A stretch of 60,339 bases of DNA, the filler included, from Sphacelaria rigidula (taxonomy: Eukaryota), in assembly GCA_964200075.2 (NCBI GenBank). It is 9 parts of 9 records of this genome, joined end to end, with 100 filler letters (N's around TTAATTAATTAA, not from the genome) between each part and the next. Parts side by side here need not be neighbours in the genome. Positions count along the whole stretch, not along the records: positions 33,580 to 40,194 come from CAXNAA020019043.1; 8 more parts are not named here. One strand, written 5' to 3'. Position numbers and translations under genes: made by a program. The notes under the pieces were generated by a model, which saw only the letters and a list, made by a program, of their open reading frames with translations, searched no databases and was not told where the DNA came from. Position 1 is the first letter of the stretch; the number at the start of each line of letters is the position of its first letter. Shown here in pieces: positions 37,233-39,340 of this stretch.

Positions 37233-37253
37233 GGGTGGTGTTGAGTAAACACC
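37233..37253 (-). terminator. Putative histone mRNA 3' stem-loop of H1
   Basis: Minus strand GGTGTT-TACTC-AACACC-ACCC, about 51 nt after the stop; near-identical to the H3 hairpin. Confidence 0.75.
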
Positions 37254-37304
37254 AGGGTTTGTTGAGTGCCCGTCCCAGACGACAGGTTTCGGAGTTGCAC
37301 AAGT

Positions 37305-38513
37305 TCACGCGGCAGGTTTCGGGGCAGTCTTCTTGGGGGCTGACTTCTTTGGCGTCGCTTTTTTGGCAGCGGGCTTCTTCTTGGCGACCTTCTTTTTGGG
37401 GGTGCCATCCGTCTTCTTCATCACGGTCTTCTTCTTGACGACCTTTTTCTTGGGGGTGCCGTCCGCCTTCTTGGCAGCTGTCTTCTTGACGACTTTCTTC
37501 TTCACCACCTTCACCTTCTTCGGGGTCTTTTTCACCACCTTCTTCTTGGCGGGCTTCTTCACTACCTTCTTCACGACCTTCTTCTTCGGCTTCGGCGCCG
37601 GCTTCTTCGCCTCGGCCGACAGCTTGTACGAGCTCTTCACCTGCACGCACGTGGCAACAATTCAGAAACCCACAAGGTCTGACGTTGAGTAGCGCACACG
37701 GACACACCAATACGCCCGCCGTTATCGACAACTCGACTCTCGGACTCAATACCTGCACCTGAAGACCCGCATTTCAATCCACCTCTACTACTCTCAACGC
37801 GCGAGACGGATATCCACGGACGGGACAGCGCCCATCGAAACCACGTCCGATTTTTTTCGGAAGCTGAAATTGGATATGGGTTCTTGTTTGCAGTGCAGGA
37901 GTATTGGTCAACCAACGGTAGGGTTCGGCACGGACCTTGATGAACTTTCCGGATTCGGTGCCCTTCTTGAGCGCCGCGCGAAGCTGGTGCGGCGCGAACT
38001 TGGTGGTCAACTCAGGATGGGTGGTGACCATGTACTTCTTGATGGCAGCCAAGCTGGACCCGTTGCGCTCCTTGAGGGCCTTAATGGCCTCAAACACCAT
38101 CTGGCGAGTTTTGAGAGCAATGTGCGAGTGAAGGGTAGGCCGTCAGTATATTGCAGTCAACACGTCGAAGGTCTTCAGGAGAAACGGTGCAGTAAGAAAC
38201 TGGAACTGAGGGCCCCCCCTACATTATTGCGCCCCGTAGCCTACAGCGCACGTTGCGTGATGATATGCCTTGGTGCAATTGTGCACCTGTGTTTCGTGCG
38301 TTCAGACGCTGTGGAGACCTGCGCATCAAACCATCCGGTGTGATTCACCCATGTACACGAACAGGCACACGTGATGAAATGAGGCATCAGACTAATCGAA
38401 TGTCATTCCACCCCGACACATGATGCACGTGTTCTGTAGTACAGGGCTAACTCGGCTCAGGGTTGCATACTGTCCATTATCCATTTCGCTCTCACCTCGC
38501 TGTATGTCGGCAT
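37305..38513 (-). CDS. H1: Linker histone H1, 3 exons (38513-38496, 38100-37936, 37640-37305), 172 aa
   Basis: MPTYSE|MVFEAIKALKERNGSSLAAIKKY...KKGTESGKFIK|VKSSYKLS followed by a Lys/Ala/Pro-rich tail. All introns are GT-AG and phase 0, and the H15 globular domain is intact. Confidence 0.95.
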
Positions 38514-38848
38514 AATTGCTGTGATTGATGGTGTCGTTGGTGTGTGTGTTCGATATCCTGATCGCGGTTGGGATGATGGAATGAGATGTGGTGGGGTCTT
38601 CGGTGTCGGTTATGTGTTTGAAACAGGAGGAGTTCCAGATAACGCATAGTGGCGGTTCGTCGTTCAAATAATTCAAATATGTGATATTGAACCAATCAAA
38701 GCGATATCGTTCGTGTAACAATATTTTAAATTGAGAAATGACGAGAATCTAAGGGGCTAGATGTCACTACATGCGTCTGCCCTACCTTCGTACATCTCAA
38801 CACAACCCCTTCCTCCACAACTTCAGCTGCGTCGTCACATCTACAGCA
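38514..38848. promoter_or_regulatory. Putative bidirectional H1/H3 promoter region (335 bp between start codons)
   Basis: Divergent ATGs with a central AT-rich stretch, CCAAT at 38692-38696 and repeated TTCAAA/TTTGAA hexamers. Confidence 0.6.
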
Positions 38849-39259
38849 ATGGCTCGCACTAAGCAGACCGCCCGTAAGTCCACCGGAGGCAAGGCCCCTC
38901 GTAAGCAGTTGGCCACCAAGGCCGCCCGCAAGTCAGCACCTGCAACCGGCGGTGTAAAGAAGCCCCACCGCTACCGGCCTGGAACCGTGGCCCTGCGAGA
39001 AATCAGGCGTTACCAGAAGTCCACTGAGCTGCTGATCCGCAAGCTACCCTTCCAGCGCCTGGTCCGCGAGATCGCCCAGGACTTCAAGACCGACCTCCGC
39101 TTCCAGGGCTCTGCCGTGCTGGCCCTGCAGGAGGCTGCGGAGGCCTACCTGGTGGGTCTGTTTGAAGATACAAACTTGTGCGCCATCCACGCCAAGCGCG
39201 TAACGATCATGCCCAAGGACATCCAGCTGGCCCGTCGCATCCGTGGTGAGCGGTCGTAA
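38849..39259 (+). CDS. H3: Histone H3, canonical replication-type, intronless, 136 aa
   Basis: [35 protein letters not shown]...[16 protein letters not shown]...RIRGERS. Confidence 0.99.
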
Positions 39260-39319
39260 CCAAACTATGGCTGCAGTCCCCATCATCACTTCCTGCAGGC
39301 CACGTGCAACAAAAACATT

Positions 39320-39340
39320 GGTGTTTCCTCAACACCACCC
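39320..39340 (+). terminator. Putative histone mRNA 3' stem-loop of H3
   Basis: GGTGTT-TCCTC-AACACC-ACCC, 60 nt after the stop and preceded by AAAAACATT. Confidence 0.75.

Follow-up and report, generated by a model that had tools for sequence, protein, structure and literature searches.

Histone mRNAs of animals and green algae are finished by a 3′ hairpin signal and lack a poly(A) tail. A gene pair of Sphacelaria rigidula, consisting of an H3 gene and a spliced H1 gene, raises the question of whether a hairpin with an unusual five-base loop, found in both 3′ untranslated regions (UTRs), is such a signal. The window analysed here is 60,339 nucleotides (nt) of assembly GCA_964200075.2, nine records joined end to end with 100 filler letters between them; the gene pair lies in the part from CAXNAA020019043.1 (positions 33,580 to 40,194), and positions count along the whole window. 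Judged by its sequence, the element is a real and functional-looking histone 3′ hairpin, identical to the version carried by green-alga-like contigs. Within the window it occurs only behind histone genes, on their coding strand and at a similar position, and the same core is kept base for base behind five histone classes in other algae.

A five-base-loop hairpin behind H3 and H1

The H3 hairpin occupies positions 39320 to 39336 on the plus strand (5′ arm 39320–39325), with the stem GGTGTT/AACACC closing the loop TCCTC. It starts 60 nt past the stop codon, which ends at 39259, and is followed by ACCC (39337–39340, plus strand), where cleavage would be expected if processing resembles that of histone pre-mRNAs in animals. 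On the minus strand, the H1 gene carries the same stem with the loop TACTC at 37237 to 37253, 51 nt past its stop codon (which ends at 37305), and the same ACCC flank at 37233 to 37236, as read from the sequence and from aligned copies. AAAC stands 2–3 nt ahead of TGGTGTT in both 3′ UTRs, and the two 3′ regions do not align outside this hairpin block. The pattern GGTGTT-N5-AACACC has two matches in the 60-kb window, compared with a mean of 0.00 in 100 dinucleotide shuffles, none of which held two or more. A preliminary description of the locus had reported a common hairpin 51–60 nt past both stops with purines after it, and the sequence of both genes bears this out. It had also held that frequent occurrence in non-histone UTRs would speak against a histone signal; within the window, both matches lie behind histone genes.

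Within 36 nt of sequence, RNAfold gives both hairpins a folding energy of −7.4 kcal/mol, with z scores of −2.9 for H3 and −2.4 for H1; 3 of 200 and 5 of 200 shuffles, respectively, fold equally well. The six-pair stem of the preliminary description holds, with the addition that a seventh pair, U-A, is possible below the GG in the two window copies and is not kept in relatives. A four-base loop with a bulged U was considered and set aside, as it would leave a 5′ arm of 7 nt against a 3′ arm of 6 nt, and RNAfold returns the five-base loop. Separately, a hairpin-like site at 16264–16279 (plus strand) reads GGTGTT-CAAC-AACACT, with a four-base loop and a basal G-U pair, and is probably a chance occurrence; it has no Pfam-recognisable gene upstream and no overlapping match is listed for the covariance model R1 described below.

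At curated gathering scores, Rfam finds no match anywhere in the 60-kb window. Under relaxed conditions, RF00032 (Histone3) scores 19.4 bits for the H3 hairpin (E 0.049) and 16.8 bits for the H1 hairpin (E 0.44), aligning over its full length (1–46) to both copies, in the correct orientation and with one inserted loop base. The resemblance to this family is real. When 14 metagenome loci with the same core (see below) were scanned in the same relaxed way, Histone3 was listed for L008, L020, L013 and L006 only, at 17–20 bits; in that scan RF00032 does not reach an E value of 10 for the histone-linked green-alga-like hairpins. Because its loop has five bases, this hairpin escapes both the Rfam threshold and scans built for four-base loops. 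A covariance model, R1, was constructed from 14 copies and run on the window with filters off. It gives 53.2 bits for H3 and 50.4 bits for H1, both of them members of its training set, and the next best of 29 listed matches reaches 11.3 bits (E 0.37).

The same core behind histone genes elsewhere

A metagenome scan with the 20-nt core, its second loop base left free, found 25 loci. By sequence they form 15 groups, and a single base separates two of these. Upstream open reading frames (ORFs) were defined as same-strand, stop-to-stop frames of at least 35 codons ending no more than 500 nt upstream, and all 87 such ORFs were passed through Pfam; L019, with only 51 nt of upstream sequence, contributes none. 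Thirteen of the 25 loci, representing 6 of 15 groups, have a same-strand histone ORF that ends 35–45 nt before the stem; it is H2A in seven loci, H3 in five and H1 in one. The closest named relative of the metagenome H2A is that of Coccomyxa (93%), and the H1 of L023 is closest to Micractinium (72%), Pyramimonas (65%) and land plants; these contigs are therefore considered green-alga-like. Their H3 and H2A ORFs begin in mid-protein, at Pfam profile positions 24–31 and 68–73 of 122, which implies that the genes carry introns. The intron-split, hairpin-bearing genes are the H3 and H2A genes on L003, L004, L001, L005 and L011 and their duplicates.

The partner H2B genes on the same loci provide a test that is independent of the search pattern. 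In all three groups that have one, the H2B gene is followed by the same stem and ACC, with the loop TCCTA or TATTA, 33–45 nt past the stop. A scan of a viral collection, which used a slightly wider loop, returned two loci, one of them apparently due to chance. The other, L027, has a hairpin with the loop TATTC (L027:1501–1520, plus strand) 33 nt past the stop of an intron-containing H4 gene. With a GC fraction of 0.56, L027 resembles cellular algal DNA or an integrated element more than a free virus. The same stem, loop type and ACC thus stand behind H2A, H2B, H3 and H1 of the green-alga-like contigs and behind H4 on L027, with a stop-to-stem spacing of 33–45 nt in these related loci versus 51–60 nt in the window.

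Across 14 aligned copies, the invariant positions are GGTGTTT, one loop T and AACACCACC, the loop follows T-N-Y-T-M, and the remainder is unconserved. ACC is present in 14 of 14 copies and the 5′ flank is rich in A and C, while sequence beyond the core is unrelated from copy to copy. Every stem position is paired (78 of 78 cells in 13 sequences). The preliminary description had proposed scanning the other histone genes, and on metagenome and viral-collection contigs the core recurs behind all five classes; its view of the five-base loop as an alteration peculiar to this lineage is overturned by the identical stem, loop type and ACC on green-alga-like histone contigs.

These counts bear on whether the two window copies could owe their likeness to chance, or could belong to a small dispersed repeat found behind the two genes by coincidence. 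The 20-mer does arise by chance in very large collections, since 5 of the 15 metagenome groups look random, with GC fractions of 0.30–0.72 and, in one case, a bacterial MreD ORF upstream. In the window itself, two matches were never reached in 100 shuffles, no third match exists in 60 kb and both lie behind histone genes, and elsewhere the core is found behind five classes of histone gene. On these three grounds chance can be excluded for practical purposes, and we give this explanation almost no weight.

A candidate processing signal and its alternatives

We consider the element to be an SLBP-type histone pre-mRNA processing signal, with a probability of about 0.7. In such a pathway, SLBP would bind the six-pair hairpin GGUGUU/AACACC with its five-base, pyrimidine-rich loop U-N-Y-U-M and its single-stranded ACC(C) tail. 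A U7-like small RNA, as part of a small nuclear ribonucleoprotein, would pair with (G/A)AAAGA(A/G), located 4–8 nt further on. Cleavage between the hairpin and the purine element, shortly past ACC(C), would then yield an mRNA that ends just beyond the hairpin and lacks poly(A), and the supply of H3 and H1 would thereby be tied to DNA replication. Several features are those of the canonical signal. Within the hairpin these are two basal G-C pairs, a closing U-A pair and a U as the first loop base; outside it, the 5′ flank is rich in A and C, ACC follows the stem and purines lie downstream. The preliminary description had suggested an SLBP-type pathway acting on a spliced H1 mRNA; what stands of this is a histone-specific and strand-specific hairpin of SLBP type, a purine element and an intron-containing H1 gene, while the pathway itself keeps the probability given above.

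The candidate downstream elements are purine-rich and close to the stem in both genes. Behind H3, AAAAGAAA (39348–39355, plus strand) follows TCCTGCC and starts 7 nt past ACCC; behind H1, AAAGAAGAA (37220–37228, minus strand) follows AATC, 4 nt past ACCC. All five window-like copies (the window H3 and H1, L002, L013 and L020) have AAAGA within 20 nt past the stem, compared with 1.8% of 16,941 random 24-nt windows of this sequence, the motif having been picked after the data were seen. The green-alga-like set has a different motif, CTGGAAG or CTGGGAG, 7–9 nt past ACC in 5 of 6 aligned H2A and H3 copies; the L023 H1 and two H2B copies have other sequence in its place. A second element that is lineage-specific yet conserved is what a co-evolving U7-like guide RNA would predict.

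Several observations weigh against a processing signal of this type. Nearly half of the metagenome loci (12 of 25, in 9 groups) lack an upstream histone ORF. Among them, L002, L013 and L020 are eukaryote-like (GC 0.51–0.55) and carry the full hairpin with AAAGA behind non-histone ORFs. Their cores, at L002:493–512 (plus strand), L013:443–424 (minus strand) and L020:597–578 (minus strand), have the loop TACTC of the window H1 and lie 13–117 nt behind these ORFs. The L020 ORF encodes a RING finger (Pfam E 2e-9); for the L002 and L013 ORFs, Pfam gives nothing usable at E values up to 1, and the best ESM Atlas score for L002 is 0.88, with no family. Non-histone mRNAs may use the hairpin signal at these loci; alternatively, these ORFs may be spurious. 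On L027, a convergent H3-like gene with an odd C-terminus (L027:1784–2071, minus strand, ending in RIRGCRD) has no hairpin within 220 nt, the sole miss.

The form of the element adds further reservations. The two RF00032 scores lie far under the gathering score of 34, below formal membership of the family. The window loops have five bases, UCCUC and UACUC, with C in third place, whereas RF00032 has four, with U first and third. The purine element is nearer to the stem than it is in vertebrate genes. RF00066 (U7) has no match in the 60-kb window, either at the gathering score or at E values up to 10, although a sample of 60 kb is uninformative on this point. Finally, all six stem pairs are invariant in 13 sequences; there is no covariation, and evolution thus gives no proof of pairing, which counts neither for nor against it. 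Most stems among the relatives were fixed by the search pattern.

An invariant palindrome would fit sequence-specific recognition as well as pairing, and the element could in principle work as DNA, as a protein-binding site or a terminator for histone gene transcription. Its asymmetric parts argue otherwise. The loop, the 3′ ACC and the downstream purines follow the coding strand in both window genes, even though these lie on opposite strands, and the same orientation is seen in 13 of 13 histone-linked metagenome loci, in all three H2B groups and for H4 on L027. Because these parts always follow the coding strand, a role at the DNA level is unlikely. The position of the hairpin is likewise fixed relative to the stop codon rather than to promoters, and RF00032, an RNA family, aligns to both window copies over its full length. 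Taken together, these points make a DNA-level function very improbable.

The hairpin might alternatively be kept for SLBP-dependent translation, export or S-phase decay, with the 3′ end formed by ordinary downstream polyadenylation and no U7-type cleavage. The absence of a U7 match in the window agrees with this, as does the shortness of the purine run, which could be fortuitous in any single copy; in addition, some lineages combine stem-loops with polyadenylation features, according to a survey preprint (10.64898/2026.10.14.759114). Set against these are the short and fixed distance of AAAGA in all five window-like copies, far above its background, and the separate downstream motif of the green-alga-like set. 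Moreover, none of AATAAA, ATTAAA and TGTAA occurs within 600 nt past either stop, although the poly(A) signal of this lineage may differ. LSM10 and LSM11 are proteins specific to U7. The same preprint, which surveys SLBP, stem-loops and LSM10/11 across eukaryotes, reports both for Ectocarpus. Polyadenylation downstream of a retained hairpin thus appears unlikely, though it deserves more weight than either chance or a DNA-level role, and processing by an SLBP- and U7-type machinery is preferred.

The gene pair and its place among known systems

The two genes form a divergently transcribed histone pair. The H3 coding sequence (38849–39259, plus strand) is intronless, with 136 codons and a TAA stop, scores 163.8 bits against Pfam PF00125 and is H3.1-like (A31, SAV at 87–89). 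The H1 gene, on the minus strand, was described earlier as intron-containing, which is correct and can be extended to two introns, both GT-AG. Exon 1 (38496–38513) encodes MPTYSE, with the donor GTGAGA, in agreement with the PTYS-MVF continuity of the Ectocarpus H1 protein P0012. Intron 1 (38101–38495, 395 nt) is followed by exon 2 (37936–38100), which encodes the globular winged-helix domain (PF00538, linker histone, 62.7 bits). Intron 2 (37641–37935, 295 nt) interrupts the junction GKFIK|VKSSYKLS, unbroken in P0012 and P0014, and exon 3 (37305–37640) encodes the lysine-rich tail and the stop, its start matching brown-algal H1. Because P0012 runs without a gap across both junctions (PTYSVMVF and GKFIKVKSSYKLS), the two splice junctions are confirmed. 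Between the genes lies a 335-bp region (38514–38848) that may act as a common divergent promoter, judging from the gene arrangement; a CCAAT motif is located within it at 38692–38696.

Of 130 candidate proteins in a search with the H1 globular exon, 97 had E values of 0.001 or less. Among named matches, those from Ectocarpus sp. and Pylaiella littoralis rank highest, with 71% identity, and one unnamed protein reaches 89%. The start of the window H1 tail is nearly identical to the H1 tails of Ectocarpus and Pylaiella. By its H1, and on the basis of this one gene, the window probably comes from a brown alga or a nearby stramenopile.

Other features of the window are less distinctive. A 703-codon open frame at 1125–3236 (plus strand) has no Pfam match, a 646-codon frame at 20182–22122 (minus strand) has only sub-cut-off matches to CCCH zinc fingers, and 13 further long ORFs that were scanned gave no Pfam family. 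Long hairpin or repeat-like stretches at 23925–24040, 27370–27797 and 32354–32718 give weak matches to plant MIR precursors, far under the gathering scores (for example 67.7 versus 245 bits), and are likely inverted or simple repeats.

Signals of this kind have already been described in green algae and in numerous protists, also on genes with introns. Like the metazoan element RF00032, the window hairpin is found in sense orientation in the 3′ UTRs of H3 and H1, tens of nt past the stop. It shares with that element a six-pair stem (basal G-C pairs, U-A at the top), a loop with U in first place, A/C-rich sequence on the 5′ side and, on the 3′ side, ACC(C) followed by purines. Animal stems are GGCUCU or GGCCCU, whereas that of the window is GGUGUU. 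Unlike the metazoan signal, the window hairpin also follows a gene with two introns. The preliminary description considered a hairpin on a spliced histone gene worthy of note; outside animals this is ordinary, and the green-alga-like H3 and H2A genes are split as well.

Green-algal histone genes of Volvox and Chlamydomonas reportedly end in a 3′ palindrome (Muller, 1990; Fabry, 1995, as cited in PMC13130582 and PMC13525598), and in the older literature their H1 genes reportedly combine introns with such palindromes. As in that system, core and H1 genes of the window, introns included, are followed by a hairpin rather than a poly(A) signal. On the green-alga-like contigs, stem, loop type and ACC are all identical to those of the window. 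The window differs from these contigs in being stramenopile-like by its H1, in its downstream element ((G/A)AAAGA(A/G) rather than CTGGAAG) and in its longer spacer (51–60 versus 33–45 nt).

Recent work points to both the reach of such signals and the limits of their detection. According to PMC13130582 and PMC13525598, stem-loops terminate the histone mRNAs of green algae, and most of these mRNAs lack poly(A) in Chlamydomonas. In supplementary file 1 of PMC13130582, histone stem-loops of Cycas debaoensis have the very same stem, GGUGUU...AACACC, and differ from the window in having four-base loops, CUUC and CUUU; that study extracted only hairpins of the 6-4-6 form. The survey preprint (10.64898/2026.10.14.759114) accepted only a six-pair stem with a four-base loop outside animals and states that hairpins with loops of another length may escape it; it describes stramenopile hairpins as further past the stop and poorly conserved. 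Lying near the stop and conserved throughout, the window hairpin is probably not what that survey scored.

No description of this signal in the present lineage was found, although this exact hairpin may be listed in Tables S5/S10 of the preprint or in older papers on Volvox and Chlamydomonas. A term search of the main text of three papers on brown-algal histones (PMC7784034, 10.1101/2024.02.19.579948 and PMC12459048) returned neither 'stem-loop' nor 'polyadenyl', and a literature search on SLBP and Ectocarpus found nothing beyond the preprint. A literal search for the hairpin 17-mer gave no hit in the literature, and the 11-mer matches, among those listed, concern unrelated subjects. What is new is thus the lineage and a five-base loop that standard detectors miss.

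A broader reading, which we regard as speculative and rather doubtful, is that GGUGUU-(U-N-Y-U-M)-AACACC-ACC is one signal kept base for base in green algae and in brown-alga-type stramenopiles. If true, it would be older than the split of those supergroups, and since its five-base loop hides it from the Rfam threshold and from four-base-loop scans, maps that show the stramenopile stem-loop as 'weak or lost' would be partly an artefact. The hairpin and AAAGA behind the non-histone ORFs of L002, L020 and L013 could then mean a wider set of SLBP-controlled mRNAs without poly(A).

In animals, the hairpin pathway ties histone supply to DNA replication, and its reach across eukaryotes is under active revision, as the survey preprint of October 2026 illustrates. 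No new mechanism is revealed here. Our analysis indicates that a hairpin specific to histone genes, sharply conserved and rejected by standard detectors, is present in a brown-alga-like genome, and it yields a motif and a covariance model recipe with which algal and protist genomes can be rescanned. It also gives reason to expect that brown-algal histone mRNAs may be under-counted in poly(A)-selected RNA-seq.

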